Shown: positions 1,541 through 49,816 of the stretch, piece after piece | How the letters are laid out: each line of letters begins with the position of its first letter | Position numbering within the stretch: the first letter of the stretch is position 1 | Assembly: GCA_030690215.1 (NCBI GenBank) | Contig: JAUYHD010000011.1 | Coordinates: 1-55,030 of the forward strand | Direction of reading: 5' to 3' | DNA length: 55,030 nt | Source of the DNA: a bacterium | GTDB taxonomy: Bacteria; Patescibacteriota; Minisyncoccia; 1-14-0-10-42-19 | Notes under the pieces: model-generated | The model's database searches: none | What the model was told of the DNA's origin: nothing | What the model saw: the letters and a program-made list of their open reading frames with translations, nothing else | Position numbers and translations under genes: made by a program

Positions 1541-1869
1541 CCCCGTAAGACAATATCGCATAATACGTCATGCGTTCGCCGCTCACTACACGCGCACTGA
1601 TTTGTTTTCTTGCTTTCCCAAAAATGTTGTTTTGTAAAATGACATATAAGAATGCATCATGCGATATTGCTCTACGGGGTCAACCCCCGTTTGGCTAAAT
1701 CGAACCGTCTTCCTCGCTGCATCTACCAGCAAGTCTCGATGGCATACTCAACGGAACATTGCTTCTTCAATCATGAATGGCATTCCGTAAGACGTAGATG
1801 CGGCTTTCGATTTTGCCTAACGGGGTCAACCCCATTAGATAGAGCGTTGCAAAGCCCGCTCATCTAACG
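1541..1869. repeat. Tandem array of three CCCCG...CGGGG hairpin elements (A1 1541-1679, B1 1685-1825, D1 1830-1869) separated by TCAA
   Basis: Terminal inverted repeats CCCCGT.../...ACGGGG; homologous copies at 14916-15382, 23351, 30526, 37290, 49672. Confidence 0.9.
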
Positions 1870-1889
1870 CCCCCCCCAGCAACACAAAA

Positions 1890-1917
1890 TAAAAAACGGA
1901 CATTGCTGTCCGTTTTA
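1890..1917 (-). terminator. Intrinsic terminator of the Glu dehydrogenase gene
   Basis: AAAACGGACA-ttgc-TGTCCGTTTT hairpin with T-run. Confidence 0.7.
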
Positions 1918-1931
1918 TACTACTTTTTATC

Positions 1932-3221
1932 TTAAACAGAAATTGCTGTGTGCTTCGTCCGAAACAAAGGAGCAACATTTTCAAGCGCAAGTAAATATGC
2001 GGCAAAACGCATTGAAACTTTATATTTCTTTTGAGCTTCAAATACATTATTTGTTTCGCGCCACATAACTTTGGAAAGCGCAGTCAGCACCTGATCGCTA
2101 GTTAATTCCCCCATAGGTACGCGGTGATCTATCTTGCCCATATTACGCGCCCATTCAAAAAATGAAACCGTTACCCCGCCGGCATTTGCCAAAATATCCG
2201 GTATGACAAAAACTCCTCTGCTCTCTAAAATCAAATCGGCTTCGCATGTTGTAGGTCCATTTGCACCCTCAATAATGCCCTTTGCTTTTATCTGCCAAGC
2301 ATTTTCTTTTGTAATAACATTTTCGAGCGCGGCTGGGATAAAAATATCAATATCTGGCAAGACAAGCAATTCATCATTTGTAATACGTTCACAATCTTTT
2401 ATTTCGCGCGTATCCTTTTTCCCTTGAAATTTTTCAAGTGGTATGCCGGATTTATTATATACCCCGCCATGCACATCACTGGTCGCAACAATGGTGAAAT
2501 CTTCCTCTGCGAGGATGCGCGCCACATGGTAGCCGACATTCCCGAAACCCATCACGCCAATACGCTTAAAATCTTTTTTCTGAAGATTTTTCAGTTTAAG
2601 AAATTTTTTGAATACCTGCACAAGTCCCCAACCGGTAGCCTCCACTCTCCCGGGGATGCCTCCATATCCAATCCCCGTTGGCTTTCCTGTGACAACTGCC
2701 TCAAATGGACCATAATTATGTGTTCGCGCCCTTTGGGCATATTTATTATGAAACCAATTCATAGTAGTCGGATTAGTACCGACATCGGGAGCGGGCACGT
2801 CCAATCTCGGTCCTATGAGATTTCGTTCAAGCATCTCTTCAGTCAATGCTTCAGTAACCCTTTTAAGTTCTTCCTGGGAATGCCTGCTAGGATCAATCGC
2901 AATACCACCCTTAGCGCCTCCGAATTCAAGCCCCATAAGCCAAGATTTGAGCGACATCTCTACGGCATGATCTTTCATCTTTTCTACAGTAACATCAGGG
3001 TGGTAACGCATCCCCCCCTTATAGGGAGAGCCGGGGAAAGGAGATCGGTGCCATGCCCGACATGCTTTAAATGATTGGAGAGACCCATCATCCATAGGCG
3101 CTTCGATGTCGCACTCCCAGACCGATTTAAATCCATGAAATTTTCTCTTCAGCCATGGTTCTAATCCTAAAAAATCACTCGCCTCATCTAGGCGTGCCAT
3201 AGTGCTGCTTTTTTCAGCCAT
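1932..3221 (-). CDS. gdhA: Glu/Leu/Phe/Val dehydrogenase (glutamate dehydrogenase)
   Basis: PYKGGMRYHP, GGAKGG, DVPAPDVGT, VVTGKP, GFGNVG, EGANGP, PDILANAGGV; start taken at MAEKSS after GGAGGA SD. Confidence 0.93.
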   Translation of the reverse strand: MAEKSSTMARLDEASDFLGLEPWLKRKFHGFKSVWECDIEAPMDDGSLQSFKACRAWHRSPFPGSPYKGGMRYHPDVTVEKMKDHAVEMSLKSWLMGLEFGGAKGGIAIDPSRHSQEELKRVTEALTEEMLERNLIGPRLDVPAPDVGTNPTTMNWFHNKYAQRARTHNYGPFEAVVTGKPTGIGYGGIPGRVEATGWGLVQVFKKFLKLKNLQKKDFKRIGVMGFGNVGYHVARILAEEDFTIVATSDVHGGVYNKSGIPLEKFQGKKDTREIKDCERITNDELLVLPDIDIFIPAALENVITKENAWQIKAKGIIEGANGPTTCEADLILESRGVFVIPDILANAGGVTVSFFEWARNMGKIDHRVPMGELTSDQVLTALSKVMWRETNNVFEAQKKYKVSMRFAAYLLALENVAPLFRTKHTAISV

Positions 3222-3309
3222 ATAATTCCTCCGCAATAGTGCGATTATAAATTTATTTTCAAAGAAAAAAGCGGTACAAAACCGCTTTCAGTATACTGCT
3301 GTGGGATTT

Positions 3310-5874: not shown

Positions 5875-6027
5875 CGCCTATTCCTCGGCATATGTATACT
5901 TCGTGAAAATGCGGGATCTTCGCCCATTCAACTACTCGCTCGCGCTCGCAGGAATGGGCGGGGGTTTTGCAGTCGCTCGCGCCAAATGCGCATTACGCAT
6001 CTCGCGCGAGCGAGCAAATTCACTTTA
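5875..6027. repeat. ~153-bp GC-rich multi-hairpin repeat, copy 1 (between rpsN and rpsH)
   Basis: Near-identical to 10112-10265. Confidence 0.92.
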
Positions 6028-10038: not shown

Positions 10039-10111
10039 TAAAGTCACCGCGCTGTTCACGAAGCAAGTTTTGATGTACAAAACGTAGCTGAGTGATTACA
10101 GTGCGCGACCC

Positions 10112-10265
10112 CGCCTATTCCTCGGCATATGTATACTTCGTGAACATGCGGGATCTTCGCCCATTCAACTACTCGCTCGCGCTCGCAGGAATGGGCGGGG
10201 GTTTTGCAATCGCTCGCGCCAAATGCGTTTTTACGCATCTCGCGCGAGCGAGCAAATTCACTTTA
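10112..10265. repeat. ~154-bp multi-hairpin repeat, copy 2 (between rplB and rpsS)
   Basis: Near-identical to 5875-6027. Confidence 0.92.
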
Positions 10266-12315: not shown

Positions 12316-12978
12316 TTATTTTTTCTTTTGCTCCTTTCCTTTAATTTCCACGAGGGACCCGAACGCGCCCGGCAACGCGCCTTTCAACGCGAGTATGTTC
12401 TGTTTTATATCAATTTTCACCACCCGGACATTTTTTAGGGTTACTCGATCACTCCCCATACGACCGCCCATGCGCATACCTTTCGCCACCTTTCCTCCGG
12501 CGCGTCCCGAACTCCCCCCGATAGAGCCGGGCTCGCGTTCGGAATGCTTCTGTCCATGGGTTCGCGGGCCCCCGTGGAACCCATGACGCTTTACAACGCC
12601 CTGAAACCCCTTTCCCTTAGAAACGCCGCTCACTTCTACCTTTTCTCCTTCCTGAAACACGGACACGGTAACATCATCTCCTTCTTTCATAGCGGTGTCG
12701 CTATCCATTTTCATTTCTCTCATCCATCGTATGCCCGAGTTTTGAGTTTTGAGTTTTGAGTTTTGAGTTTTCCCAAGGTGCCCTTGTTGGGGCTTCTTCA
12801 TCTTGCTTTTGCTCTTTTTGCCGAACCCAATCTGCAAAGCATCGTATCCGTCTTTTTCCTTCGTTTTTATCTGGGTCACTACAACCGGACCCGCCTGCAC
12901 TAAAGTCACGGGGGTTACATTTCCCTCGTCATCAAACACCTGCGACATTTCTAGTTTTTTCCCTAAAATAAACTTCAT
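12316..12978 (-). CDS. rplC: 50S ribosomal protein L3
   Basis: PVTLV, DGYDALQIG, SKGKGFQGVVKRH, REPGSIG; contains (GAGTTTT)5 at 12737-12771. Confidence 0.98.
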   Translation of the reverse strand: MKFILGKKLEMSQVFDDEGNVTPVTLVQAGPVVVTQIKTKEKDGYDALQIGFGKKSKSKMKKPQQGHLGKTQNSKLKTQNSGIRWMREMKMDSDTAMKEGDDVTVSVFQEGEKVEVSGVSKGKGFQGVVKRHGFHGGPRTHGQKHSEREPGSIGGSSGRAGGKVAKGMRMGGRMGSDRVTLKNVRVVKIDIKQNILALKGALPGAFGSLVEIKGKEQKKK

Positions 12979-36668: not shown

Positions 36669-36802
36669 AAGATTGTAGTTTGTGTGAGTGTGAGTAGTTC
36701 GTAATTAGAAAAAATTTTCGCTTTCATTTAAGCGTTTTATGGTAACCCCAAATACTAATTACAAATTACTCATTACTCAAAATTTGAGCGTTAGCGAAAA
36801 TT

Positions 36803-37288: not shown

Positions 37289-37289
37289 A

Positions 37290-37434
37290 CCCCGTTAGGC
37301 TAAATCGAAAAACGTCTTTCTTACAAAACCGCAGAAGATATTTCGATGTTTACCTTTGTTTGTACTTTTAATATTCATACTTTGTATTACCCCGCAAGAC
37401 GTAAAGGTTTTGCTTTCGATTTTGCCATACGGGG
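37290..37434. repeat. C-class hairpin element C1, 1 bp upstream of the YkuK start codon
   Basis: Flanks CATA/CATG; homologous to 49672-49816. Confidence 0.9.
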
Positions 37435-37446
37435 CATGTATTTCTA

Positions 37447-38259
37447 TTATAAAAGACTGCTCTGGACATCAGAGTGAAGCTGATATTCCTTGTCGGTACG
37501 ACGCGCGCGAAGAATTCTATCAAGCTTAAATATGCGATTCCCCTTGCGAAGGTGGCAATATCCCTCAATAGTTGCCGTATTCAATGTATATACGTCAACT
37601 AATCGGGTATTGAGCGAACCGCCTCCATGTTCAGGATTTTTTGTCACATAATCAATTTCAACGCTCCTTCTGGAATCAAACGCGTCTTTCAATACCTGGA
37701 ATACATTCCCCTGGAACTCTTCACCCCATCGCACAGGAATAGACACCTCGCCCAACGCGTCACGCGGAACGAACTTTATATGTCCCTGCTTTTTCCCATA
37801 TTCATATAATTCCTTTGTAACTTTTACATCTTGCACGCAATAATCTTTAACTTCCTGTATCCGTCCTTCGCGAAACCACTGGAGTGCTTGTAACCCGTCA
37901 GCGCTCTTTGAGATGCTCAATGTTGTCCGCGCCAGATTATCAAGCGACACGCGAAACCCTACTCCGCGTACTACATCATCCATCATATCAAGCATGGGAA
38001 CTTCTTGCAGATTAATAGATGTGTACGGCTGAAGCACGGGAATATCAAATCCTGTGATATTAAACCCAACCAACAAATCAGTACTGCGTATCATGTCTTC
38101 AAATTTCTGTAATTCGTGCTCCTCAAATACATGATACTTGTCATCATCCGATGTGTGAGCGGCAAGAACAGAAATACCGAGTTTATCCACAAAATCGCGA
38201 CCGCCGACTTCGGCAAATTCTTTTTTTGTTTCAATATCAAAAACGATAATATTTTTCAT
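37447..38259 (-). CDS. RNase_H_2 (YprB-like DEDD exonuclease) domain fused to C-terminal WYL domain
   Basis: VFDIET, GFN-GFD, YC-QDV; then VEIDY...GYCHLRK-NRIFKLDRI. Confidence 0.85.
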   Translation of the reverse strand: MKNIIVFDIETKKEFAEVGGRDFVDKLGISVLAAHTSDDDKYHVFEEHELQKFEDMIRSTDLLVGFNITGFDIPVLQPYTSINLQEVPMLDMMDDVVRGVGFRVSLDNLARTTLSISKSADGLQALQWFREGRIQEVKDYCVQDVKVTKELYEYGKKQGHIKFVPRDALGEVSIPVRWGEEFQGNVFQVLKDAFDSRRSVEIDYVTKNPEHGGGSLNTRLVDVYTLNTATIEGYCHLRKGNRIFKLDRILRARRTDKEYQLHSDVQSSLL

Positions 38260-38369
38260 TGGAAATGATTATAGCACAAAAAAAAATAATCACAACACCC
38301 ACATGTAAAGCGGTTATTCAAAAAGAAGGCCGTACGGCCTTCTCCCCGGCACGCGTCCCGGCAATGGCA

Positions 38370-38771
38370 TTAAAATGGAGCATCAATCGCAAATATACCC
38401 GCCCCCATTATGACTAACGAAAGCGCGATAATAAGCAGGGCAAGTTCAAATTCCCATCCGTTTACAAATCCCTTTTTGCGCGCAACTAATACAATCGCAA
38501 AAAACATATTAACCGCAAGCAAGAGTGCTACGGGCTGAACAAAAAGTCCGATAATAAGAAGAGCGCCCCCGAAAAATTCAAGAATACCTATCCAAAGAGT
38601 CCACGCTGTCGCGGGGCGAAGACCCAGACTTGCAAAAAATGCCTTAGTTTCCGAGAATTTCTTAAATAATTTTGGATATCCGTGAAGAATAAAAATAACA
38701 CCCAAAAAAACCCGCAGAATAAAGGGAACCGTAAACCAAAAATCAAATAATTGAGGAAATACGCTTGGCAT
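38370..38771 (-). CDS. DoxX family membrane protein
   Basis: LRVFLG-IF-LHG-PKL, EFFGG, GWEF, GAG-F-ID. Confidence 0.9.
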   Translation of the reverse strand: MPSVFPQLFDFWFTVPFILRVFLGVIFILHGYPKLFKKFSETKAFFASLGLRPATAWTLWIGILEFFGGALLIIGLFVQPVALLLAVNMFFAIVLVARKKGFVNGWEFELALLIIALSLVIMGAGIFAIDAPF

Positions 38772-38942
38772 ACTATTCTATTCCTACGAAATTACGAACC
38801 TCTACGAAAGTACGAAATAGAAATTAAATTTTTTCGTACTTTCGCGCTTTTTCGTATGTTCATAGGCTTTATCTTTTTCGTATTTTCGTACAGTTTCGTA
38901 TGTTCGTAGGAAATCTTGCCATACGAAGCATGTACATCTATA

Positions 38943-39614
38943 TTATACATGTTTTTGGAGCCATGCAATAATATCATCTTCCAGTTTTTGATATACGGAA
39001 AATAGATGAATGCCGTGCCCCCCCGTCTCAAAAATTTTTATATGTTTATTCTCTGAAGCAACTGCATCAAAAATTTCTTTGCCCATAACCGTAGCCGAGA
39101 TACCATTCCTTCGTATGTCATCTTTTGCCGCAATAATGTAAACATTTTGGTGCCCGGATACAGCACGCGCCGACGGAAGCGTTTGGATGCCATGATAATC
39201 AATACCCGCCGAAAGCATTACCGCTCCGTTTATTTCTTTCTCTTCCGCGAGAATCTGCAAAGCAACATTTGCCCCGATTGATGCCCCTACAACAAAAAGT
39301 GGAATATGGCTCTCATTTTTTTGAAATAAAAATCCCGCACGAGCATCTTCAATGCTTTTTTTTGTTTCATCTTCCGAAAATGACCGATATCCATCGGGAC
39401 CGCCATCCGATTCACCATGTCCCCGAAAATCAATCGCAAGAACCCCAAATCCCTTGCTCTGCAGTTTTTTTGCAAAGCCATCCCATGATTCTTTCGTTTC
39501 GGGCAGCATATGCAAAAGCAAAACGGCGGGACTTCCCTTTTCCCATTTATAATGAGTGCCGATAATAGCTACACCGTCTTTCGTTTTTAATTCTATGCGT
39601 TCTTGCATCTGCAT
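38943..39614 (-). CDS. Alpha/beta hydrolase
   Basis: LLLH, DFRGHGES, GASIG, GHG. Confidence 0.9.
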   Translation of the reverse strand: MQMQERIELKTKDGVAIIGTHYKWEKGSPAVLLLHMLPETKESWDGFAKKLQSKGFGVLAIDFRGHGESDGGPDGYRSFSEDETKKSIEDARAGFLFQKNESHIPLFVVGASIGANVALQILAEEKEINGAVMLSAGIDYHGIQTLPSARAVSGHQNVYIIAAKDDIRRNGISATVMGKEIFDAVASENKHIKIFETGGHGIHLFSVYQKLEDDIIAWLQKHV

Positions 39615-39663
39615 ATATAATATGATACTATACCACTAACTATGTTTTAAAAGGAGAATATGA

Positions 39664-39960
39664 ATGGCGGAAAAGGCAGAAGAAAAAGATATACGCGCAT
39701 TTGATATGGCAAACGGACTTACCTACATAGGAGAATTTGAAAATCCTGGCAACGGAATTATGCCGAGCCTTAAAAATACCATAATAACAGAGACGCTTGT
39801 AACCACAAATTCAGAAAAAACCCTTGAAAACAAATATAGGGAGCTGTATGAATTATTTGGATTGGGACAAAAAAACTCGCTTGCTTCAAAAATGGTCCTG
39901 ATCACATTAAGTCAAGTAGTCGCAACCCATTTTTTACCAGGTGAACTAACGAAGAAATAA
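39664..39960 (+). CDS. Hypothetical protein
   Basis: AAGGAG SD, terminator AAAACCCGCAAGGGTTTTTT. Confidence 0.65.
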   Translation: MAEKAEEKDIRAFDMANGLTYIGEFENPGNGIMPSLKNTIITETLVTTNSEKTLENKYRELYELFGLGQKNSLASKMVLITLSQVVATHFLPGELTKK

Positions 39961-40276
39961 AACCCGCAAGGGTTTTTTTATTATCTGCCCGCGCTATTGC
40001 GCGATTTGTAGGCAACACACCCAGCACATACCTTGTAAGACATACTGACTCATTGGTTTGATGCCTATAAAATATACACAAGATTCAGCATGAGTATAAT
40101 TTCATTTCTCTAATTCCCTCCGAAGGAGGACAGGCGCGCTTGTCTGCCTTCGGCAGAAATAGGCGAATAGTTTATAAAATAGAAAATATGCCCAATGTAA
40201 TTACGTTATGTGCTTAGTGGAATAACCGTAAGGACCCCAATCAACGTGGATACTGTAGTGCAAGTAGTGCGGTTAT

Positions 40277-41569
40277 TCATTTTTTGGGACGATAATATTT
40301 TTTTCCTTTCAGCTCTTTCGGTAAATGCTCTTGGATCACTTTTGCGTCCTTTCCGCCAAAGGCGGATCCTCCTTTGGAGGGAAAATCATGGGCATATTTG
40401 TACCCTTTGCCATACCCCAATTCCTTCATCAAGTTAGTAGAAGCATTGCGCAAATGCAACGGTACAGGAAGGGCTCCTTTCTCTTTCGCATCTTTCCATG
40501 CTTCCATAAGACCCGCGTACGAAGCATTATCTTTTTTAGCAGACGCCAAATACGTAACGCCTTGCGCGAGATTGATTGCCGCTTCCGGCATCCCTACAAA
40601 TGAAACTGCCTGCATAACGGCAACCGCAACAGCAATTGCGGTCGGCTGGGCATTCCCTATATCTTCTGACGCAAATATAACCATACGCCGCGCGATAAAA
40701 CGGGGGTCTTCTCCTCCTTCAAGCATCCGCGTCATCCAATATAAAGCGGCATCCGGATCGGAATCGCGCATTGATTTTATAAAAGCGGAAATAAGAGCAT
40801 AATGCTCTTCTCCCTTCTTATCATATCGGATTGTTTTTTTCTGAAGCGCTTCTTCAATCATTGCGCCGGAAAGGGCTACGGAATCCTTTTTTTCTTGGGA
40901 CAACGCATGCTGTATCGCAAATTCAAGCGCGTTTAATGCTATACGCGCGTCTCCATCCGAAAAATGGACAAGCTTTTGCATTCCTTCTTCTGCAAGCAGA
41001 ATCTTTTTTCCCCCAAAGCCGCGTTTTTTGTCAGACAATGCGTTTTTGATTATTTTTTCCACATCTTTTTGAGCGAGGGATTCAAGGACCAATACAAGCG
41101 AGCGTGACAAAAGGGGGCTTACAAGCGCAAACGAAGGATTTTCGGTTGTGGCACCGACAAGAACGACTGTTCCCTTCTCTACATAGGGCAGAAATACATC
41201 CTGTTGCGTTTTATTAAAGCGATGAATTTCATCAACAAACAATATGGTGCGTTTTTGGTGATGCTTCAAACGGTTTTCCGCTTCCTGAATTACTTTACGC
41301 AATTCGGGAATGCCGGATACCGCGGCAGAGAACGGCTGAAAAAACGATTTTGATTTTTCCGCGATAATATGCGCGAGGGTAGTTTTTCCGGATCCGGGCG
41401 GCCCCCATAAAATAACAGACTGCACAGTATCATGTTCAATTGCTTCCCGAAGGGGCTTGCCCTTCCCCACTATTTTTTCATGCCCGAAAAAACCCGAAAA
41501 ATCCCGCGGACGCATGCGTTCGGCAAGGGGCATGATCTGTAACACTGTGTCATCAAACAAGTCTTTCAT
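40277..41569 (-). CDS. rarA: Replication-associated recombination protein A (MgsA/RarA)
   Basis: PLAERMRP, GPPGSGKTT, DEIHRFNK, ATTENP, ASEDIG, VPLHLRNA. Confidence 0.96.
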   Translation of the reverse strand: MKDLFDDTVLQIMPLAERMRPRDFSGFFGHEKIVGKGKPLREAIEHDTVQSVILWGPPGSGKTTLAHIIAEKSKSFFQPFSAAVSGIPELRKVIQEAENRLKHHQKRTILFVDEIHRFNKTQQDVFLPYVEKGTVVLVGATTENPSFALVSPLLSRSLVLVLESLAQKDVEKIIKNALSDKKRGFGGKKILLAEEGMQKLVHFSDGDARIALNALEFAIQHALSQEKKDSVALSGAMIEEALQKKTIRYDKKGEEHYALISAFIKSMRDSDPDAALYWMTRMLEGGEDPRFIARRMVIFASEDIGNAQPTAIAVAVAVMQAVSFVGMPEAAINLAQGVTYLASAKKDNASYAGLMEAWKDAKEKGALPVPLHLRNASTNLMKELGYGKGYKYAHDFPSKGGSAFGGKDAKVIQEHLPKELKGKKYYRPKK

Positions 41570-41634
41570 AATAAAAAACACACCCACTCTATCAAAGAAG
41601 CGCCGTTAAGAAGACACGGACACACATCCTGTGT

Positions 41635-42201
41635 CTATTGTTCTTTCAAAAGATAATGATGAAGCACTTTATACTCGGCACCCCCAAATCCCAAAATTGA
41701 CTGCATAATAACTACGGAAGAAGCAGTCCCAAAAAAATGAACACCCTCATCTAATTCCTGCACAGAAAACGACGCAAACGCTTCGGGCTGGAAGCGCGCG
41801 AGCGTCACATGAAGCTCAAAGGGCCGCCGTTCCGGATGAAAATTAACATTTGCGTTTTTTAGTATTCTCTCCATTTGTTCTCCCAATTCTTGCATCACGG
41901 GAGGCATTGGCCCCTCAATCCAAATGAGCCGAGGCGCGTGTGCTGTCGGCCCAAATTGTACGCGTGTAAGCTCTATTTCAAACGAAATAGTATTGCTGAT
42001 AGTCGGCAAAAGAAGTCCTTTTAAAAAATCTATGTGGTGTTCTTCTACAGACCACGGGGGAATAAGCGTGATATGAAGATCATGCGGCTCAGTCCAACGG
42101 ACAGGAATATTTGTTCGCTTTTTAAATTCTTTTTCCCACCCGACTACCTTGCTTTGAAGCACGTCATCTAGCGGAAACGCAAAAAAAATTCTCTTGCTCA
42201 T
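41635..42201 (-). CDS. thpR: RNA 2',3'-cyclic phosphodiesterase (2H family)
   Basis: LHITL and HVTLAR 2H motifs. Confidence 0.88.
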   Translation of the reverse strand: MSKRIFFAFPLDDVLQSKVVGWEKEFKKRTNIPVRWTEPHDLHITLIPPWSVEEHHIDFLKGLLLPTISNTISFEIELTRVQFGPTAHAPRLIWIEGPMPPVMQELGEQMERILKNANVNFHPERRPFELHVTLARFQPEAFASFSVQELDEGVHFFGTASSVVIMQSILGFGGAEYKVLHHYLLKEQ

Positions 42202-42277
42202 TATATATAGAATATCACATCCGGACCCAATTAAAAATTCCCTGCTTATTTTGAATAAGCAGGGAATATATTTATTT

Positions 42278-43789
42278 TTATTTTAAATAATATAGATGAA
42301 TAATTGAAGTAGCTCTGCGATTGAGCAACTCCCCTATGCGTGAAAAAGTAAACCCAAATGTATCCCGCAATTCTTCCACTATGCACTTACGAACATAAAG
42401 CACCTCACTGCTTCTGTCAGCGCTCAAAAGTTTTTCTTTAGAAACGGCATATTTCTTTACAATAGAATCTAAAAGCGCATTGTCATTTGCATGAAGGATA
42501 CCCGGAAAAAAATTCCGTTCCATAAGTTTCTTGCGAAGTTCCTTTGGAGGACCCCAGGAATTAAAAAAAGAGTCGATCTTTTTTGTGGGCGCACTTGCTT
42601 TCAAAAAAGCTAGCATGATTGCAACTTGTCTTGCATAATAAAAATCATTTTTAGTTGCATATTCTTCTTTGCGTCTACGCCTTGTGATATCCTTGGATGC
42701 AACACTAAACGCTTCTGCGGTTTTCTCAACAATATAATTAAGAGACGCACCACCAGGCAATGAATCATACAATTCTTTAAAAATAACGCACGTGCGATCC
42801 CATTGCATCACGCCCTCAGATGCAGAAAAATCCTGGAGACCATCTACAAAACACTTTGCCCTCTCCCAAAGTTCATGTGTGCGCAATTTTTCTTTTATTT
42901 TCTCAAGATCTTTTTGAGCTTTTGCAAGAGAACAACTCAATCTCACGCTTATTTCTTGGAAGGTATGCTCTTTTGTATTACCCAAGCCATAATATAGGGT
43001 AAGAATTTTACGCTCCCCATTAGTAAGAAGCGCGTCACGAAGAACTTTATGTACAAACGCTTGCAAGTCACTCTCACTCGCAACGTCTTCCTGCGACACC
43101 CTTTCGTCAACGACATAATCAACTAAAACGCCTTCGTCGTCTTCAGAAATAGCACGGCTTGCATCAAGAGAAATCTTTTCGCGCCAAAATTCTTCTGTGA
43201 AAAGCACCCAACGAACTATATTAAAAGGTTTGTCCATTTCCTTCGCGATTGCTTCAACTGTAACATCCCCTTCTTCACTTTTAATCTTATAAACAACTTT
43301 TCTTAACTTGCTTATAGCTGCCATCATACGAGTAGATATTTCTAAACTACCGCTTATAGCATCATACATTTCTTTTCTAACCCACCATCCAGCATACATC
43401 ACAAAACGACCGTCTAGATTATAATCATAGCTTGTAACAGCTTTTGTAAGACCGATCATTCCTTCTTGTATCAAATCAGGCTCATCAAGCACTGGGTTTT
43501 CAAATAAATTATAAGAAAAAGCAAAACTACGCGCGTATTTATGAACAAGTCCTTTATACTTAAGGATAATCTTATTCCTTAAACGTATTCGTTCTTTTGG
43601 GTCTGACGCTTTTCTATATTTCTCAAAAAGCAACAAATCATCGGGGCGATAACAGAACAAATCTTTAAGTTCTTTGCATGAAAGTTTTTTAGATGTTTTA
43701 GAGGGCACTGATCTATTTCCGGTTACCCAATCAATCTCTTCTCGAACAGTAAAACTACTTTCGGCAGAAAGCGTATTAATATTATTCAT
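42278..43789 (-). CDS. Sigma-70 family factor fused to two DnaA C-terminal-like HTH domains
   Basis: DLIQEG-IGL-KAV-YD...F-YA-WW, ISLD, LYYGL...TFQEI; then ARQVAIML and FSRIGELLNR-TSIIH. Confidence 0.75.
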   Translation of the reverse strand: MNNINTLSAESSFTVREEIDWVTGNRSVPSKTSKKLSCKELKDLFCYRPDDLLLFEKYRKASDPKERIRLRNKIILKYKGLVHKYARSFAFSYNLFENPVLDEPDLIQEGMIGLTKAVTSYDYNLDGRFVMYAGWWVRKEMYDAISGSLEISTRMMAAISKLRKVVYKIKSEEGDVTVEAIAKEMDKPFNIVRWVLFTEEFWREKISLDASRAISEDDEGVLVDYVVDERVSQEDVASESDLQAFVHKVLRDALLTNGERKILTLYYGLGNTKEHTFQEISVRLSCSLAKAQKDLEKIKEKLRTHELWERAKCFVDGLQDFSASEGVMQWDRTCVIFKELYDSLPGGASLNYIVEKTAEAFSVASKDITRRRRKEEYATKNDFYYARQVAIMLAFLKASAPTKKIDSFFNSWGPPKELRKKLMERNFFPGILHANDNALLDSIVKKYAVSKEKLLSADRSSEVLYVRKCIVEELRDTFGFTFSRIGELLNRRATSIIHLYYLK

Positions 43790-43900
43790 AGAATCCTCCT
43801 TATCAAAAAACTAACAAATCTAAAAAAAATGTAACATATCTTTTTCTAAAAATCAAGCCCCCATCTTGACATTTTATGAAAATGCATTATTATATCCTTG

Positions 43901-44728
43901 GATATGTTTTTCTGAATGATCGCCCAGCTCCAGTTTTGTAACAGAAATTTGTAGAGGAAATGCACCATCTTTTGTAAACGGTTCCAATGATACAGATGTT
44001 AGTTACAAAACTGGGGCTGGGAGGAAAGTCCGAACACTCCCCCTCACATGAAAAAGCATACTTATTTTTAAAATTCAATCGATACTTCAGACAATAAGAC
44101 CCATGATGGTATCAAAAAAGACTCAAAAACATATAAGCACAAGCTTATAATGCTTTTTCATGTGAGGGGAACAAGGTAGCGTCCCATATCCCGCTCATAG
44201 CGGGATCAAGGATCCCGGCATCTTATAATTCATAAATAGAGGTCGGGAGGTAACACCCGTCGTGCGCAAGCATAGTGGTGCGAGCAGAAACGTCCCGATT
44301 CGAAAGAATCGCGGAGGACCCACATCCCAAGCTAGATGGTCCACCTTCACCATAGGGACAACAAAGTGAAGATGAAACGGCTAAATCCATACCCGAGTGC
44401 AAGGCCGTACTTTCGATGCTTCGCATCGAACGCAGAACTACGCAGAATAAACGCAGAACAACGCGGAAATTTTCCGCGAGGGTCTGCGTCACGTCTGCGC
44501 AAGTCCGCGCTCGACGCGGAGCGTCGAGAGAGTGCCGCAAGATCCCGATAGCAATGTCGGGACCAGATAAATGATCATTGCCAATTTTGTTTGCTGCAAG
44601 CAAACACAAAATTGAGCTCCCGAGCAAGGTCGAGGGACTCTTCGACTACGCTCAGAGTACTCGATTTTGTAATTTCGCTTCGCTCAAACAAAATCGGTAC
44701 AGAATTCGGCTTATAGGAATAATATATC
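43901..44728 (+). ncRNA. rnpB: RNase P RNA, expanded to ~830 nt
   Basis: GAGGAAAGTCC (44021), GGTAACAC, GATGAAACGG, GCAAG, AGATAAATGATC, ACAGAATTCGGCTTA (~44699); upstream TTGACA promoter, downstream terminator 44737-44762. Confidence 0.88.
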
Positions 44729-44774
44729 CAAAACACAAAAATCCCGGCTTTCCGGGATTTTTGTTCACACATAA

Positions 44775-47093
44775 TCAATTAGAATCGCCCTCGGACGTTA
44801 TTTTTTCGGGAAACGTACGAGCTGTTTCAGAATCAATGTCTATCTCGCATACTCCGCCGACACACGCAAGCTCTTTTGCGCCAGCCGTGTTATCTTCTTT
44901 TTCGTACGCAACAATCTGAGAAAAATCAACCTGCGGCATACGCGCGGTTAATTCATTATATTTTTCTTCCGAAATTGCCTCATACGGCGCAAGCTGGTAG
45001 GCGTGATCTGACTTTGGAAGAAACGAAAGCCCTCCCAAAATACTCCACCGCTGATACAGCCAATTTGCAGTCTCAATCCATTCATCGCGCATAACCGAAA
45101 CCGTAACCGAAGGGTTGTGCTCGGTGAAATTCTTTTTTACCATTTCCCAATGTTTTAATTGCTCAATTGCGTTCAAATTGACAATTGCCTGCTCCGGCGC
45201 TTTTACCGGAAACTCCAGCACAAATGTCGTCGCAGAACTTGCGTCCTGCCCCACTTCGGAATGATATGGAAATTTTTGATCTTTCAGCATATGAAACAAC
45301 GGATCAGTCGCCGAAATCCGAACGCGGCGAATATAATATTTTGCGTGCCTCGTATGCATGCCGGAAGCCGCATCAACAAGCTGGGATACCGTGCCCGACG
45401 GTTTTACGCATGTAACACATGTGGATGCATTGATTCCAAACCGACGCGCATATTCTTCGTTCGTACGCACCGCGACTTCTTTCATGCGCAGAAGCGTTTC
45501 GGGATTGCGCACTGCAGACGAATCCCATTGACCGGTAATTGAGACGCCAAGCAGCCGCTCTTCCTCGCAATTTTCTTTCCACTCTTTTGAAATAAACGGA
45601 AAATTCGTGAGCGATGACTGATATGTGCCCAACATTGAAGCAAGGCGGGTTTTCCGAACAAGCATTTCTTCTGTGTCTTCTGCTCGCGCGACAACTTCTG
45701 AAAGATTGCAGAACTGCTTTGAACGAAGCACTATTTCACCGCATGGATTCGTCCCGCATGTCCCGTGATGATGTTTAAATACTTTCCATCGGCGCGCGGG
45801 AAGCTGGTTTTTGAGGCTTCCTCGGTTAAAAATACCCCGCTCGCCTGTCCCTGATTGCGCAAGCGCGAGCCATTCCTGCATAAATTCGGTTGCCGTCGGC
45901 CGTTCGTTGTATACTGCGGAATTGTTTGCCATAGAACGCTGGGGTTCGGTGAGATAAAATTGCCCGGTTTTTGCATGGCGCATTTCTTTATCATCCAAAT
46001 CCGAAAGCGAAATTAAAGCGCTTCGCCGTACTCCCCCCATCACGACTACTTCCCCTGTTTTGCAAATAATATCGTGAATATCCAAATTTGAAAGACGGCG
46101 TCCTTGGCGCGAAAATATCTTTGAACGAGAAAAATCCAAAAGCGCTCGAAGCGGCTCCGGCCCCGAACTTCGCCCCCCCATAGTGGCAAGACGAGCCCCT
46201 GCGGGACGCAATGTTGAATAATCAAATGCGATGTCTTTACCCGAGTACCATGTTTTAAGTCCGAGCGTTAATGCTTCTGCCCATCCCTCTTTACTGTCGC
46301 CGACAATATGTGTCGGGAGCGTTGTTCCTATCTGACGTTTTACAATTGGAAGCTGTTGAACTGTCTGTGATTCAACGGAGTAACCGACACCCGTCCCGCA
46401 CATCAATAAATACATTATTTCTGCAAAATCTTCGAGCTTTGAAGGCGCAATGAAAGAACAATTGTAGGCGGCAACATTACTTTTCCGTGCCGCATGCCCA
46501 GCACTCCACAAAAGACGCATAGAGGGCATTACCTCTTGGCGCAACACAGCTTCGCGCAATTCGTTATATTCTTCGGATGTGAGCTTATCGCCAATATTCT
46601 CACGCATAAAATTGATATAGCGATCAACCGTCTCTATCCATGTTTCCCTTCTTCCCTCATCTTCAACCCAGCGAGAATATGTTCGGTAATAAATAAATTC
46701 TGAAAGAGGATTTCTAAAATATTTTTTGCTTTCTTGGGCAAACGCCTGGACATGATCCGGAATGACTTTCTTTTTTTCTCGGATATGCGCGCGCTCGCTT
46801 CGATATAAAATATACGCTTTTGCCGTTTTTGGAAAATCAAGAAGAATAAGACTTTCTTCAACCACGTCTTGAATCGCCTCAATAGAAGGTACCCCCCCGC
46901 GAGGATATTTCTCTGTTAATCGCTTGATTACGCGATCGGCAATAAGCAATGGATCGCGCCGCGTATCACCTTCGCCGCTTGCCTGCATGGCGCGGGATAC
47001 TGCGTTTACAATTCTGTTTTTATCAAAAGAAACTACTCGGCCATCGCGCTTTCGCACGGATTGGACCAAAAAAGACGATGCGTGTGACACCAT
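44775..47093 (-). CDS. nrdJ: Class II (B12-dependent) ribonucleotide reductase with N-terminal ATP cone
   Basis: VRKRDGR-V-FD, RTYSR, YNCSF, GGVRRSA, TNPCGEI, CNLSE, KPSGT, C-terminal C-GG-C. Confidence 0.92.
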   Translation of the reverse strand: MVSHASSFLVQSVRKRDGRVVSFDKNRIVNAVSRAMQASGEGDTRRDPLLIADRVIKRLTEKYPRGGVPSIEAIQDVVEESLILLDFPKTAKAYILYRSERAHIREKKKVIPDHVQAFAQESKKYFRNPLSEFIYYRTYSRWVEDEGRRETWIETVDRYINFMRENIGDKLTSEEYNELREAVLRQEVMPSMRLLWSAGHAARKSNVAAYNCSFIAPSKLEDFAEIMYLLMCGTGVGYSVESQTVQQLPIVKRQIGTTLPTHIVGDSKEGWAEALTLGLKTWYSGKDIAFDYSTLRPAGARLATMGGRSSGPEPLRALLDFSRSKIFSRQGRRLSNLDIHDIICKTGEVVVMGGVRRSALISLSDLDDKEMRHAKTGQFYLTEPQRSMANNSAVYNERPTATEFMQEWLALAQSGTGERGIFNRGSLKNQLPARRWKVFKHHHGTCGTNPCGEIVLRSKQFCNLSEVVARAEDTEEMLVRKTRLASMLGTYQSSLTNFPFISKEWKENCEEERLLGVSITGQWDSSAVRNPETLLRMKEVAVRTNEEYARRFGINASTCVTCVKPSGTVSQLVDAASGMHTRHAKYYIRRVRISATDPLFHMLKDQKFPYHSEVGQDASSATTFVLEFPVKAPEQAIVNLNAIEQLKHWEMVKKNFTEHNPSVTVSVMRDEWIETANWLYQRWSILGGLSFLPKSDHAYQLAPYEAISEEKYNELTARMPQVDFSQIVAYEKEDNTAGAKELACVGGVCEIDIDSETARTFPEKITSEGDSN

Positions 47094-47169
47094 AACATGT
47101 GAGATGGTTTATGAATGATAAAGAAATAAATTATTGGAAACGCAATGAAACGGTACGAGTCCGCGCGCA

Positions 47170-48309
47170 TTAATCTTTTCGAGAACGCCTGAGAAACGCG
47201 GGAATCGTATTCCAATCTTCCTTCTCTTCTATTGTATCATTTTTTCCGTTATCCTCTGCAAGTAAGTTTTCCACTACTGCCTTTGTCGCAACCTTCTTTT
47301 GGGCGAAAGCATGAGACCCCTTCCCCTCGGCAAAAAGGCTTTTTGAAATGCTTCCTTCGGGGAAGCCCGAAGCAATCACGGTAATTTTAATCTCGTTTTT
47401 CTTCAATCGTTCATCATGGATCGCGCCAAAAATGACGCGGGCATCCTTATCAATGGCATCTGTAATAATGCGCGCGGCTTCCTGGATCTCCCACATGGTC
47501 ATATCAGGCCCTCCGGCGATAGAGAAAAGAACGCCCCGAGCGCCATCAATTGACATATCCAACAATGGAGAATTAATCGCCTTATGGGCCGCTTCCTCTG
47601 CGCGCTTATCTCCCGTTGCAGTCCCGATGCCCATAAGCGCGGATCCGGCATTCTGCAAAATAGCGCGAACATCAGCAAAATCAACATTAATGATGCCGGG
47701 GAGCATAATCAAATCGGAAATTCCTTCTACCGCTTGACGCAACACCTCATCACACATCGCAAACGCCGAAAGAAATGTCGTTTCTTTTTCAATAGCAGTC
47801 AACAATCGGTCATTTGGAATAATAATCATTGCGTCTACCGAAGATCGTAATCGGTCAATGCCTGCTTCTGAAATTCGGGAACGCTCCGCGCCCTCAAAAC
47901 CAAATGGCCGCGTTACAACCCCAACGGTAAGAGCGCCTTGCGCGCGAGCGGCTTCAGCAACGACGGGACTCGCGCCAGTCCCCGTGCCTCCCCCCATACC
48001 ACAGGTAACAAAAACCATATCAGCGCCTTTAAGCGATTCTTGAATCTCATCACGCGTTTCTTCGGCGGCTTGCCGTCCGACTTCCGGATCCATTCCCGCC
48101 CCAAGTCCCTTTGTAAGATTTTTTCCTATATGAATTTTTTTGGATGCTTGAGAATTATGAAGATCTTGCGTATCGGTATTTACAACGACAAAATCAACAC
48201 CCTTTACCTTGGAGTGTATCATGTGATCAACCGCATTTGACCCCGACCCACCGGTGCCAACTACTTTAATGCGGGCAAATGCTTCAATGTCTGGTTTTAT
48301 GTTTGCCAT
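47170..48309 (-). CDS. ftsZ: Cell division protein FtsZ
   Basis: [23 protein letters not shown]. Confidence 0.99.
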
Positions 48310-48497
48310 ACTACAAGAGAGAAACCAATATAACGCATCCTCATAATAAATAAAAAAAATACCCGTTTCAAGGATATTATTACAAGAACATAGAGCAATG
48401 AAAAAATCCAGCCCCCCTCACATATCTCTCGCGATGAGGGATAGATGGCATGAAAAAAAATTCATCCACGGCTATTGCTCTCAGTAAAACGAGCCTC

Positions 48498-49670
48498 CTA
48501 GGGCAGAAAAGCTTTAAACCAGCGCCACAAAAGCGAACCCCCTTTTTCAGAAATGCCTGCAAAAATACCGCGCTTGTTTCTTTCCTCTGATTCATACGCC
48601 AGCAAACAAAGCCCTGTCACTGCCGCAAAGCGCGGGTCAAACTCTTCTGCAAGACCCGATTCTTCTATCGTACGCGCGACTTCAACGGGTAATCGAAGCG
48701 CGCTCCGTCCCATTGTTTCAATATTGAACAAATGCGCCCCTCCGCCCGCAAGCACAACACCTCCCGGCAAAAGACCATCCCTATTAATTTTCTTTAAATG
48801 AGCGCCGACAGATTCAAATATGTCCCCCACGCGCGCGGCAATAATTTCTTCAATCTGTTTTTTATTTGAACCGCGAAACTGCCTATATTCTTGCTTTTGG
48901 CGTTCTGCCTCATCAAGCCCGATACGAAGACCGATTGCGATATCGTGGGTAATCGCTTGCGCGCCGATAGGAAATGCTTTGACCGATACCGGCAAGCCCT
49001 CTTCAAAGATCGCCGAACTTACGGTCCCCGCACCAATATCAAGCGTCATCACGCCAACTTCTTTTTTGTGGTTAGAAAGAATGGCGCGCGAAACAGCCAA
49101 AGGAGAAGCAACAACATCATCTACCGCTACTCCCACGCGCTCGGCGCACGCCGCAATGTGTTCTACGTGCTGGGACAGAGCCGTGATAAATATTGTTTCT
49201 GCTTCAAGGCGAGAGCCGGTAATGCCTACGGGGTTTCGGGTTACCAAATCTTTATCAACCCGAAATAAAAGCGGAAACCGATGAAGAATTTCCTTGTTAT
49301 GATGAGGAACAATGCTTGCGTAGCTCGCGTCTAACACCCGGCTCACATCGCGCTCGCTGATATCTCCTCCATTTGCGTATGGCAACACAATAGACCCGCG
49401 CGCTATCACCGAATCCAAGCTTGTCCCCCCATACGAAAAAAAGGCAGATGAAACCTTCACTCCTGCCATTTTTGTCGCTTGAAAAAGAGATTTTTTAAGC
49501 TGTAATGCTACCGCATCAACGTCTATAATGTCTCCTCGCCTAACGCCTTCGGATCGTACATCGCCAACACCCCGAATCTGCATGCGTCCTGTTGCGTCAT
49601 CCCACTCTGTAATCATCGTTTGGATGCTTGAAACTCCGATATCAATTCCTGTAGCAATGTGACGAGTCAT
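48498..49670 (-). CDS. ftsA: Cell division protein FtsA
   Basis: GIDIG, DIGAGT, ITHDIA, AE-K, GGVVLAGGG, amphipathic C-tail; adjacent to ftsZ. Confidence 0.93.
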   Translation of the reverse strand: MTRHIATGIDIGVSSIQTMITEWDDATGRMQIRGVGDVRSEGVRRGDIIDVDAVALQLKKSLFQATKMAGVKVSSAFFSYGGTSLDSVIARGSIVLPYANGGDISERDVSRVLDASYASIVPHHNKEILHRFPLLFRVDKDLVTRNPVGITGSRLEAETIFITALSQHVEHIAACAERVGVAVDDVVASPLAVSRAILSNHKKEVGVMTLDIGAGTVSSAIFEEGLPVSVKAFPIGAQAITHDIAIGLRIGLDEAERQKQEYRQFRGSNKKQIEEIIAARVGDIFESVGAHLKKINRDGLLPGGVVLAGGGAHLFNIETMGRSALRLPVEVARTIEESGLAEEFDPRFAAVTGLCLLAYESEERNKRGIFAGISEKGGSLLWRWFKAFLP

Positions 49671-49671
49671 A

Positions 49672-49816
49672 CCCCGTTAGGCTACATCGAAAAACGTCTT
49701 CCTTGCAAAACCGCAGAATATATTTCGATGTTCACCCTTTATTGTACTTTTACTAATAATACTTTATGTTACCCCGTAAGACGTAAAGGTTTTGCTTTCG
49801 ATGTTGCCATACGGGG
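49672..49816. repeat. C-class hairpin element C2, 1 bp upstream of the ftsA start codon, flanked by CATA
   Basis: Homologous to 37290-37434. Confidence 0.92.

Follow-up and report, generated by a model that had tools for sequence, protein, structure and literature searches.

How did a family of short hairpins come to be scattered between the genes of a bacterium, and which enzyme could have moved them? The question is raised by a 55,030-bp stretch of DNA (the window; contig C30) from a 1.02-Mb genome, 96% complete in 38 contigs, whose host is a tiny bacterium from groundwater. An earlier note on this sequence had listed 12 elements with ends of the form CCCC...GGGG, and all 12 are present where it placed them. 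Our analysis suggests that these are probably non-autonomous derivatives of minimal elements driven by a GIY-YIG nuclease.

Hairpin elements of the window and of the genome

The first group consists of A1 (1541-1679, forward strand), a 139-bp hairpin; B1 (1685-1825, forward; 141 bp), in tandem with A1; and D1 (1830-1870, forward), a short hairpin of 41 bp whose right end is degenerate. The left TCAA of A1 lies within AATCAA (1535-1540), whose reverse complement, TTGATT, is a promoter -35 hexamer; the -10 is at 1512-1517 (reverse complement TACAAT), and the promoter faces an ORF at 194-1453 on the reverse strand. An array at 14916-15382 likewise sits in a -35 hexamer, AGTCAA (14910-14915, reverse complement TTGACT), with the -10 at 14887-14892 (reverse complement TATTAT). 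It starts with A2 (14916-15054, forward; 139 bp), followed by the 39-bp hairpin D2 (15059-15097, forward) and by B2 (15102-15382, forward). The latter had been taken for a plain 140-bp copy; it is in fact a B element (140 bp plus duplication) split by a nested 137-bp element, A3 (15214-15350, forward). Farther on lie D3 (23219-23260, unassigned strand), a degenerate 42-bp hairpin of the form CCCTG...ATGGGG; D4 (23351-23391, forward; 41 bp); and A4 (30526-30664, forward; 139 bp). The D3 segment is missing from G002, a genome of the same genus, which also lacks a 1.7-kb segment with A4 at its left edge. C1 (37290-37434) and C2 (49672-49816), both of 145 bp and on the reverse strand, adjoin start codons: the CATA to the left of C1 (37286-37289) includes that of an ORF at 36803-37288 (reverse), and the one to the left of C2 (49668-49671) includes that of an ORF at 48498-49670 (reverse). 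The -10 box of C1 (37446-37451, reverse complement TATAAT) lies across the element from the ORF, and that of C2 (reverse complement TATACT) is at 49826-49831.

The earlier note had most of these elements flanked on both sides by the same 4-mer. This stands for A1 (1537-1540 and 1680-1683), A2, D2, and B2, with TCAA; for A3, with CAAG; for A4 and D4, with CAAA; and for C2, with CATA. The flanks of D1 and D3 are unmatched, those of C1 differ (CATA on the left, CATG on the right), and B1, which has the TCAA at 1680-1683 in common with A1 and a second one at 1826-1829, carries an extra C at 1684 on its left. A separate 130-bp hairpin at 44040-44169 (unassigned strand; CCCCTCACATG...CATGTGAGGGG), with 14/14 terminal bases paired and unmatched flanks, is situated within an apparent RNase P RNA gene.

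Across the genome we catalogued 71 elements and, among the catalogued copies, 68 that are non-coding, with lengths of 39-150 bp; the longest sense ORFs of the short elements span 28-47 codons. A scan for CCCC[GA]...[CT]GGGG pairs 30-400 bp apart, with at least 11/14 terminal bases matched, returned 103 terminal-inverted-repeat pairs, 49 of them between identical 4-mers. The same scan of five shuffled genomes found 2-9 pairs, of which 0-1 were identically flanked, confirming that flank identity far exceeds chance genome-wide, and the opposite-polarity scan gave 11 pairs with none. A strict short pattern matched three times in the window against 0.20 expected. After curation, the two flanking 4-mers are identical in 44/75 copies; matched copies are few in class D (4/17), and some copies bear minority 4-mers (CAAG, CAAA, TAAA, TGTG, TACG, and TGAA). 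Like MITEs, then, the elements are small, non-coding, and multi-copy, and their ends are complementary at 11/14 bases or more in every catalogued copy. All six elements that were folded form whole-length hairpins (z-scores of -3.6 to -6.4). Long ORFs cover 6% of element bases versus 81% of the genome, so that the elements are almost wholly intergenic, and composite elements recur at several loci. At the gathering score, Rfam finds only two tRNAs in the window and no family for the elements; no description of such elements was found in the literature searched, which agrees with the earlier note, where the ends were not recognised as those of a named family.

Empty sites and target specificity

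The elements are mobile and duplicate 4 bp of their target. At five places, the orthologous sites in genomes of the same genus are empty and show the 4-mer once, as the earlier note had anticipated. The site of the array is empty in both G002 and G001, with a single GTCAA; in G002, those of C1 and C2 each hold a single CATA, and that of D4 holds a single CAAA (GGTCAAATAGGAGG). A longer, 299-bp element with a GIY-YIG gene (C18:55560-55858) has an orthologous empty site of its own. Since an intact B copy at C26:18858-18997 carries one CAAG where A3 interrupts B2, it represents a paralogous empty site for A3. Identical flanking 4-mers together with single-4-mer empty sites are the target duplication expected of a MITE, and they support the earlier proposal of non-autonomous elements, presumably moved in trans, that generate one. 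None of the elements occurs in G002.

The flanking 4-mer depends on the class and orientation of the element, and the orientation is fixed (8/8 for A, 6/6 for B, and 9/9 for C and G, the latter being the 299-bp elements). Classes A, B, and E, plus D in either orientation, are of a TTGA type, entering the -35 hexamer of a promoter after TTGA; class C and the G elements are of a TATG type, entering at the start codon (T|ATG) of a gene that follows a -10 box by 5-8 nt. In this genome, TTGAnn followed after 16-18 nt by TAnnnT is found at 19/26 junctions versus 5.6% of all TTGA sites, and the same -35/-10 pattern is found at 18/22 TTGA junctions in relatives, an association with promoters that could be inflated by selection for harmless sites. 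At 9/11 junctions, the ATG within the right-hand TATG begins an ORF of 100 aa or more, compared with 19.6% of all TATG sites, and a -10-like hexamer precedes it by 5-8 nt at 7/11, compared with 7.9% in the control; for TATG junctions in relatives, the figures are 24/37 for an ORF start and 14/38 for the hexamer. This geometry is that of a leaderless transcript. For both types, the base after the target 4-mer is often C, as it is at the element junction. The dependence of the 4-mer on class and orientation, the fact that it is a start codon (TATG) or the first part of a -35 hexamer (TTGA), and the spread of the elements across the class had escaped the earlier note.

GIY-YIG genes between the same ends

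The earlier note had proposed a search for longer copies with the same ends and an ORF for a transposase or recombinase. Such copies exist, and the enzyme that they encode is a GIY-YIG nuclease, outside the classes envisaged. Three full and two partial copies of the G element, the latter at contig ends, have C-type ends and CATA flanks; short and coding elements thus have their ends in common. The interior of the G element is one ORF for a stand-alone Slx1/UPF0213-like nuclease of about 95 aa, and the left and right repeats cover its 5' and 3' ends, respectively. The ORF matches Pfam PF01541 with an E value of 2.7e-17 (63 bits against a cut-off of 22.6), and the residues Y11, Y22, G24, R32, H36, and E68 do not vary among 10 sequences; this profile match and the catalytic Tyr, Tyr, Arg, and Glu residues place it in the GIY-YIG superfamily. 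The AF2 model of the protein (pLDDT 85.5) has the UPF0213 protein BH0048 (1zg2, the best match) and Slx1 as its nearest solved structures; it comes without a DNA-binding domain and is closer to Slx1/UPF0213 than to I-TevI. The ORF is conserved and under selection, with dN/dS of 0.20-0.27 among the three full copies, in which repeat pairing was kept by one compensatory change at the cost of two residue changes. An ATG lies upstream in the reading frame of the nuclease, and the G element may therefore borrow the promoter and start codon of its host gene.

Other GIY-YIG sequences accompany the G elements. The window holds a 264-bp pseudogene element (51325-51588, reverse strand) with inverted ends CCCCTCCTTTT...AAAAGGAGGGG and one in-frame stop, which is missing from G002 and G001. 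It also holds an intact 81-aa gene (35926-36171, reverse; PF01541, E value of 1.8e-15), a relative of the partner gene that stands free of bounding CCCC...GGGG repeats, with a partial tRNA-Lys copy on one side and the intact tRNA-Lys (35836-35909) on the other; the 875-bp segment with this gene is entirely absent from G002. A further GIY-YIG ORF lies in the 16S rRNA gene (C6:52402-52700). The TTGA-type GIY-YIG element of this genome, C15:62389-62685, has an in-frame stop, and for the abundant classes A, B, D, and E an intact GIY-YIG partner of the TTGA type is lacking here.

Among 301 genomes of the class that we compared, both target types are found in about a tenth. Short TATG-flanked elements occur in 39/301 genomes and in all five genomes with a TATG-flanked GIY-YIG element, a co-occurrence count that overstates independence because members of the same class are related by descent. 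Four genomes from different families (G005, G187, G142, and G000) have short elements whose first 20-26 nt are identical to those of the resident GIY-YIG element. CCC...GGG repeats bracket 12/29 GIY-YIG loci in relatives versus 0/3788 control windows; by this ungapped criterion, the other 17 loci have no bracket. The G protein has nine distinct foreign relatives (identity of 56-72%), all with ATG directly on both sides: (T/C)ATG upstream and TATG (eight) or ATG (one) downstream. Three genomes (G016, G207, and G196) have eight short elements each and no exact match to the GIY-size pattern.

Candidate mechanisms and known systems

We think it reasonably probable that the window elements derive from elements of about 300 bp whose single gene encodes the GIY-YIG nuclease. 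The nuclease would cut both the target and the hairpin at its base, either with a 4-nt stagger or guided by structure, host repair or ligation would finish the insertion, and the short elements would rely on the nuclease in trans. Cleavage at element sites is a prediction from sequence. GIY-YIG enzymes cut DNA without joining it, and a joining step by the host must therefore be assumed; we know of no GIY-YIG enzyme that acts as a transposase. The duplicated 4-mer restores the -35 or start-codon motif beside the host gene, so that insertion would be tolerated.

Alternatively, an unlinked enzyme may mobilise the elements, with the GIY-YIG ORF as cargo or as a selfish gene that has settled in them. 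The genome encodes candidates (three rve, two Y1_Tnp, two large serine recombinases, and one Xer-like recombinase), the orientation-specific tetranucleotide flanks may recall IS200/IS605, the junction CGGGG-4 nt-CCCCG between adjacent elements resembles a recombinase core site, and the TTGA-type classes are here without an intact coding partner. Yet no DDE, HUH, serine, or tyrosine enzyme of the genome shares these ends: rve elements (IS3/IS481-like) end in TG... repeats rather than CCCC, and the two Y1 genes each have a distinct flanking hairpin of their own (4 and 11 copies) and fall below the RAYT cut-off (35-39 bits versus 80). Xer-type housekeeping synteny is found in G002, which has none of the elements. 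Moreover, the ends vary greatly among lineages and always match the resident GIY-YIG element, which a conserved host enzyme would hardly tolerate. We regard an unlinked enzyme as possible but unlikely.

Conservative site-specific recombination, in which an excised circle (junction GGGG-TTGA-CCCC or GGGG-TATG-CCCC) recombines with a chromosomal copy of its 4-nt core, would make the 4-mer a crossover core instead of a repair duplication. Core and orientation are fixed per class, as an asymmetric overlap region would give, exactly one 4-mer separates the units of tandem arrays, and the frequent C after the target resembles the junction. We nonetheless consider this improbable: the other matched 4-mers (CAAG, TACG, TGTG, and TAAA) fit duplication of whatever was cut, no element encodes a recombinase, and a 4-nt overlap is unusual, as tyrosine recombinases have overlaps of 6-8 and serine recombinases of 2. 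That the hairpins are immobile regulatory or terminator structures, with identical flanks from local duplication, deserves almost no credence. Their intergenic placement next to promoters would suit such a role; the clean empty orthologous sites already contradict it, and nested insertions, dozens of copies with unrelated flanks, and the absence of the elements from G002 also speak against it.

Returning to the GIY-YIG-driven elements, coding relatives with nothing but a GIY-YIG gene hint at a new kind of transposon. The new features are these coding partners, the class- and orientation-specific 4-mers that are the start of a promoter -35 or a start codon, and the distribution across the class. 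In rRNA genes of CPR bacteria, GIY-YIG ORFs lie in non-intron insertions placed outside spread by homing (PMC11270868), the same kind of small ORF in the same lineage; unlike here, the available part of that paper reports no inverted repeat, hairpin, palindrome, duplications, non-coding derivatives, or promoter targets for them. Stand-alone prokaryotic Slx1-like proteins are the minimal form of the domain, and one was recently inserted into an HsdR gene (PMC1564403). The G protein has the same minimal fold as UPF0213 proteins (PDB 1zg2), a family for which the accessible text of PMC1564403 gives no mobility role, inverted repeats, or duplication. No group I or II intron is matched in the window by Rfam at the gathering score.

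GIY-YIG homing endonuclease genes, whether free-standing or carried by introns (I-TevI and Seg proteins), are copied into the cognate allele by homologous repair. Like the G gene, they are selfish genes with a GIY-YIG nuclease as sole product, whose spread is presumably begun by a target cut; to our knowledge, homing leaves no inverted repeats, 4-bp duplication, or non-coding derivatives, and the insertions here occupy many unrelated loci, each with a 4-bp repeat. Resemblance to IS200/IS605, PATEs, and REP/RAYT lies in the hairpins, the orientation-specific tetranucleotide flanks, the small non-autonomous derivatives, and the very small coding element. IS200/IS605 elements move by HUH Y1 transposases, their two ends are unlike each other, and they generate no duplication; here the Y1 genes keep other hairpins and the empty sites reveal a duplication, and the RAYT-like genes, with their low scores, are flanked by other palindromes. 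Tn3 elements have 38-bp repeats starting with GGGG and a 5-bp duplication, as opposed to CCCC and 4 bp here. Among DDE insertion sequences, IS5, IS701, and IS1380 make 4-bp duplications; PF01609, the one model searched for this group, has no match in the genome, nor do PF01548, PF07282, and PF00872.

The window elements resemble MITEs and belong to a superfamily of hairpin elements bounded by terminal inverted repeats. Bacterial MITEs such as the Correia elements of Neisseria, which are traced to DDE insertion sequences, are likewise 40-150 bp long, non-coding, and multi-copy, with terminal inverted repeats, a short target duplication, intergenic locations near promoters, and whole-element hairpins. 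Unlike MITEs with a known transposase in their autonomous partner, the sole coding elements with the same ends here carry a GIY-YIG nuclease, and the 4-bp duplication, which is a start codon or the beginning of a -35 hexamer, is specific to class and orientation.

Hairpin elements and their insertion sites

All 12 CCCC...GGGG hairpins that an earlier note had listed in the window were found there: four of class A (137 to 139 bp; at 1541, 14916, 15214, and 30526), four of classes B and C (141 to 145 bp; at 1685, 15102, 37290, and 49672), and four of class D (39 to 42 bp; at 1830, 15059, 23219, and 23351). The positions stood as listed, and only the content of 15102-15382 needed correction: it is not a plain copy, being a class B element (B2) that carries an inserted class A element (A3, 15214-15350). 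Six elements were folded as single-stranded DNA, and each formed one long hairpin (-12.5 to -32 kcal/mol, z -3.6 to -6.4), with 0 of 200 shuffles folding as well as the element.

We scanned the surrounding genome (1,019,534 bases in 38 contigs, 43% G+C, 96% complete; the runs containing the window are groundwater metagenomes) for CCCC[GA]...[CT]GGGG pairs, spaced 30 to 400 bp, in which 11 or more of the 14 terminal bases were complementary. Identical 4-mers stood on both sides of 49 of the 103 pairs. Five shuffled genomes gave 2 to 9 pairs each, with identical flanks in 0 or 1, and a control scan of opposite polarity gave 11 pairs, none of them with identical flanks. A genome-wide catalogue built by clustering and BLAST holds 71 elements: 20 A, 11 B, 14 C, 17 D, and 6 E (128 to 150 bp), all noncoding, and 3 G (299 bp), which are coding. 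Together they cover 8.8 kb (0.86% of the genome). Stop-to-stop open reading frames (ORFs) of at least 150 aa contain only 6% of element bases, versus 81% for the genome, and several contig ends fall within elements.

Empty sites were found both within the genome and in its relatives. An intact B copy (C26:18858-18997), 98% identical to B2, has a single CAAG where B2 reads CAAG-A3-CAAG. The same-genus genome G002, which is 98% complete, has a contig (C4) that is collinear with the window from about 3250 onward, and none of these elements was found in G002. At the array of A2, D2, and B2 with its inserted A3, the window reads GAAGTCAA-[A2, D2, B2::A3]-TCAAGCATCC, and the empty site reads ATAAGTCAAGCGCC in G002 and AGAGTCAACACC in G001, a second genome of the genus. 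The window has GTCATA-[C1]-CATGTATTTCTATTATAAAAG at C1 (37290), for which the empty site in G002 is GTCATATACTTCTATTATAAAAG; the empty sites of C2 (49672) and D4 (23351) in the same genome are GCCATATACTTTAGTATAACG and GGTCAAATAGGAGG, respectively. The G element on contig C18 likewise occupies GAGG-CATA-[element]-CATA-TATCTATTATACTA, and its orthologous empty site in G002 is CCTC-CATA-TCTCTTATTATACTA. The 4-mer is present exactly once at each orthologous empty site. Six runs were found, with no RNA run listed among them. Logan contigs of four (X1 to X4) covering 35500-52000 break at elements, and none bridges an empty site; they have no bearing on polymorphism or expression. Overall, the family is real, and the results support the inference of the earlier note that these are non-autonomous elements moved in trans by an enzyme reading the shared ends.

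Target motifs and orientation

The orientation of the elements was set by their unequal ends. Oriented in this way, A copies have TCAA in 8 of 8 cases and B copies in 6 of 6, and C and G copies have CATA in 9 of 9; the D hairpins are nearly symmetric and occur in both orientations. Read as reverse complements, these 4-mers define a TTGA type (classes A, B, D, and E) and a TATG type (classes C and G). In the TTGA type, the right-hand TTGA opens a hexamer TTGACA, TTGACT, or TTGATT, and a TAnnnT hexamer lies 16 to 18 nt farther on at 19 of 26 non-array junctions, versus 5.6% of the 12,742 TTGA sites; in other genomes, the same test gave 18 of 22 junctions. The promoter is still present in G002 without the element, as TTGACT-N17-TACTAT, read from the empty site of the array. 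In the TATG type, 9 of 11 junctions have an ORF of at least 100 aa starting at the right-hand ATG, compared with 19.6% of all TATG sites, and a TAnnnT hexamer stands 5 to 8 nt ahead of the left-hand copy at 7 of 11, versus 7.9%; the corresponding counts in relatives are 24 of 37 and 14 of 38. In the window, C1 and C2 lie exactly between the -10 box and the start codon of ORFs 36803-37288 and 48498-49670, respectively. From these counts, we conclude that the elements insert in -35 hexamers and at start codons, the latter in genes whose geometry is leaderless. Defined promoter motifs serve as their targets, and on the side of the gene the signal is restored by the duplication.

Several further features of the ends were recorded. 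TTGA, TATG, and TGTG can self-pair through G-T wobble, only on the ORF-sense strand, and CAAG, CAAA, TAAA, and TACG cannot. The gene-proximal end of C elements (e.g., window 49672-49720, minus strand) reads, by eye, TTGCAA-N18-TAGCCT-N8-ATG, a candidate outward promoter that could replace the displaced -10 box. In A elements (e.g., window 14912-14950, minus strand of the right end), the junction TTGA+CC is accompanied by TATGAT or CATAAT 16 nt inward, a promoter-like pair reading into the element. Inspection by eye gave no guide-like rule linking the 4-mer to subterminal bases that was consistent across classes.

The sites themselves display insertion, a 4-bp repeat, target motifs, orientation specificity, reuse of the flanking 4-mer in tandem, and ends in common. 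Irrespective of the enzyme, the elements enter -35 hexamers and start codons precisely, with the signal rebuilt by the 4-bp duplication. As a safe-site strategy, this is unusual in a genome with ORFs over about 80% of its length. For uncultured bacteria, the insertion sites also provide a ready-made map of promoters and of genes that are likely leaderless.

The GIY-YIG protein of the G elements

The three complete G elements (C18:55560-55858, C8:50490-50788, and C5:6-304) have C-type ends and CATA flanks, as do two further partial copies at contig ends. On the minus strand, the interior is a single ORF, CCCCGT-ATG...TAA-CGGGG, whose 95-aa product matches the Pfam GIY-YIG domain (E = 2.7e-17) and retains the residues (Tyr, Tyr, Arg, His, and Glu) that do not vary among ten aligned relatives. 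Among solved structures, BH0048, a UPF0213 protein (E = 8e-4), and Slx1 are closest to the predicted fold (mean pLDDT 85.5), far ahead of I-TevI and the N-terminal domain of UvrC. The copies differ pairwise by 8 to 16 bases, with dN/dS of 0.20 to 0.27, and in the C5 copy, an A-to-C change in the left repeat is paired by a T-to-G change in the right repeat at the price of two amino acid changes. Therefore, selection appears to keep both the protein and the pairing of its element's ends. In G elements from four genomes, the flanking ATG on the upstream side is followed by an open frame that continues into the nuclease (MPRMAKSN..., MPSKTKSN..., MPGSTNSN...); thus, the G element may borrow the promoter and start codon of its host.

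The genome has about 17 GIY-YIG matches, and several diverged copies are bounded by CCCC...GGGG repeats of their own. These include a pseudogene between such repeats in the window (51325-51588) and, outside it, an intact ORF in a 299-bp element (C6:52402-52700) with the ends CCCCTCCTTG...CAAGGAGGGG. The latter sits in a putative 16S rRNA gene, recognized by eye, between the conserved 340 and 515 regions.

Small GIY-YIG genes of this kind occur in 34 of 41 related genomes, mostly several in each. A CCC...GGG inverted repeat brackets the gene at 12 of 29 loci, compared with 0 of 3788 control windows in the same loci. A search with the G protein alone, a small sample, returned five loci in genome contigs and four in metagenomes, and the architecture of the G element is present at all of them. 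Nine distinct foreign relatives (L012, L049 to L053, L055/56, and L057), 56 to 72% identical to the G protein, are all flanked directly by ATG on either side, as read in the orientation of the ORF. Their upstream flank is TATG or CATG, and the downstream flank is TATG in eight; ATG alone matches in one (L050/L054). The repeat sequences vary among these nine.

Among 301 genomes of the class, the pattern YATGCCCNG-N120-150-CNGGGTATG was found in 39 (36 of 221 genera) and YATGCCCNG-N265-295-CNGGGTATG in 8, with 1 match to the reversed control pattern in each case. A GIY-YIG ORF or pseudogene lies inside the longer match in five of those eight genomes, all of which also have short elements: the genome of the window, G000 (10 matches), G005 (16), G020 (2), G187 (15), and G142 (9). 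In G005, G187, G142, and G000, the short elements and the resident GIY-YIG element begin with the same 20 to 26 bases, and these vary from genome to genome. Ends common to short and GIY-YIG elements in each lineage are the usual sign of an autonomous/non-autonomous pair. The elements are spread through a whole class of Patescibacteria.

Other repeats and RNA genes of the window were noted separately. By appearance, 44015-44720 resembles RNase P RNA, with GGAGGAAAGTCCGAACAC close to its start and ACAGAATTCGGCTTATAG close to its end; it scores 26 bits with Rfam RF00010 against a 100-bit cutoff. This putative gene seems split by insertions, including a 130-bp CCCC...GGGG hairpin (44040-44169), and contigs of other runs skip 285 to 338 bases there. 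At 35765-36273, an 81-aa GIY-YIG gene lies between a partial tRNA-Lys 5' half and an intact tRNA-Lys(CTT). The partial copy has a 31-nt hairpin in its anticodon loop, and its 46-nt hairpin segment is found again at 35765-35810. A similar arrangement is found at C20:7851-8329, and G002 has the tRNA-Lys without the 875-bp segment. Three direct copies of a 35-nt tRNA-Pro piece (27049-27258), 71 to 100% alike, stand beside the tRNA-Pro gene at 27009-27082. The heptamer GAGTTTT forms tandem arrays at 12723-12785 and 54775-54851. A segment of about 150 bp is duplicated at 5875-6027 and 10112-10265 with 98 to 100% identity, overlapping a 92-bp CCCCGCCTATTCC...GGAATGGGCGGGG hairpin at 10109-10200; two more copies of this hairpin, at C8:59851 and C34:1826, have unmatched flanks.

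Candidate enzymes and known transposons

The candidate partner of the elements is a GIY-YIG nuclease, a kind of enzyme not known to drive transposition. We tentatively propose, with slightly more doubt than confidence, that a new class of prokaryotic transposable element, about 0.3 kb long, encodes a single protein, a stand-alone GIY-YIG nuclease like Slx1, and has inverted repeats that overlap its own coding ends. Such an element would insert exactly in one of two kinds of target, the -35 hexamer or the start codon of leaderless genes, with a 4-nt stagger. The duplication would mend the host signal and, in the TATG type, supply the element with the host's promoter and start codon. The element would have given rise to swarms of 140-bp and 40-bp noncoding derivatives across a whole class of Patescibacteria, and it could account for GIY-YIG-bearing insertions in genes for rRNA, RNase P RNA, and tRNA. 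Mechanistically, a structure-sensitive nuclease like Slx1 would make cuts staggered by 4 nt in the target 4-mer and might also cut the element's hairpin or cruciform at its base, after which host polymerase and ligase would complete insertion.

Mobilization by an unlinked enzyme is a possible alternative, and the genome does encode other recombination enzymes. Models for DDE_Tnp_1, IS110, TnpB, and mutator transposases had no match in it. Three rve genes lie in IS3- or IS481-like units whose ends are unlike those of the CCCC...GGGG elements. Two RAYT-like Y1 (HUH) genes (C11:6301-6966 and C15:74769-75509), scoring under the RAYT cutoff, are each flanked by their own palindrome (AAACACCGAGTGTTT, with 11 genome copies, and TGCAAGACCCGGTCTTGCA, with 4) and form with these a separate REP-like system. 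The genome further encodes two large serine recombinases and a single Xer-like one. Conservative recombination through a GGGG-4 nt-CCCC junction is a possible route as well. Genome-wide, no rve, Y1, serine, or Xer-like gene lies within the elements. We rejected integron attC sites: some ends fit GTTRRRY/RYYYAAC by eye but in reversed order, other classes do not fit, and the sole tyrosine recombinase is the Xer-like one.

GIY-YIG insertions have been described in related contexts. Tsurumaki et al. (2024; PMC11270868) reported CPR rRNA genes with non-intron insertions bearing GIY-YIG ORFs and treated these as falling outside homing; in the accessible part of its main text, there is no mention of an inverted repeat, hairpin, or palindrome by those words. 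Stand-alone prokaryotic Slx1-like proteins were presented as the minimal GIY-YIG form by Dunin-Horkawicz et al. (2006; PMC1564403), in the accessible part of which they are given no role. Our search, with subscription journals, ISfinder, and supplements outside its scope, found no published description of GIY-YIG elements with terminal inverted repeats and target site duplication or with MITEs, and literature on UPF0213/YhbQ/COG2827 and on TTGACA with MITEs held no description of such elements. If the proposal of a nuclease-driven element is true, it would provide the stand-alone GIY-YIG (UPF0213) proteins, which are widespread, with a role and would help explain odd insertions in genes of the ultra-small Patescibacteria. 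The elements would then be among the smallest autonomous mobile elements known, and their nuclease would add a class of transposon mechanism beside those of the DDE, DEDD, HUH, serine, tyrosine, and Cas1 enzymes.
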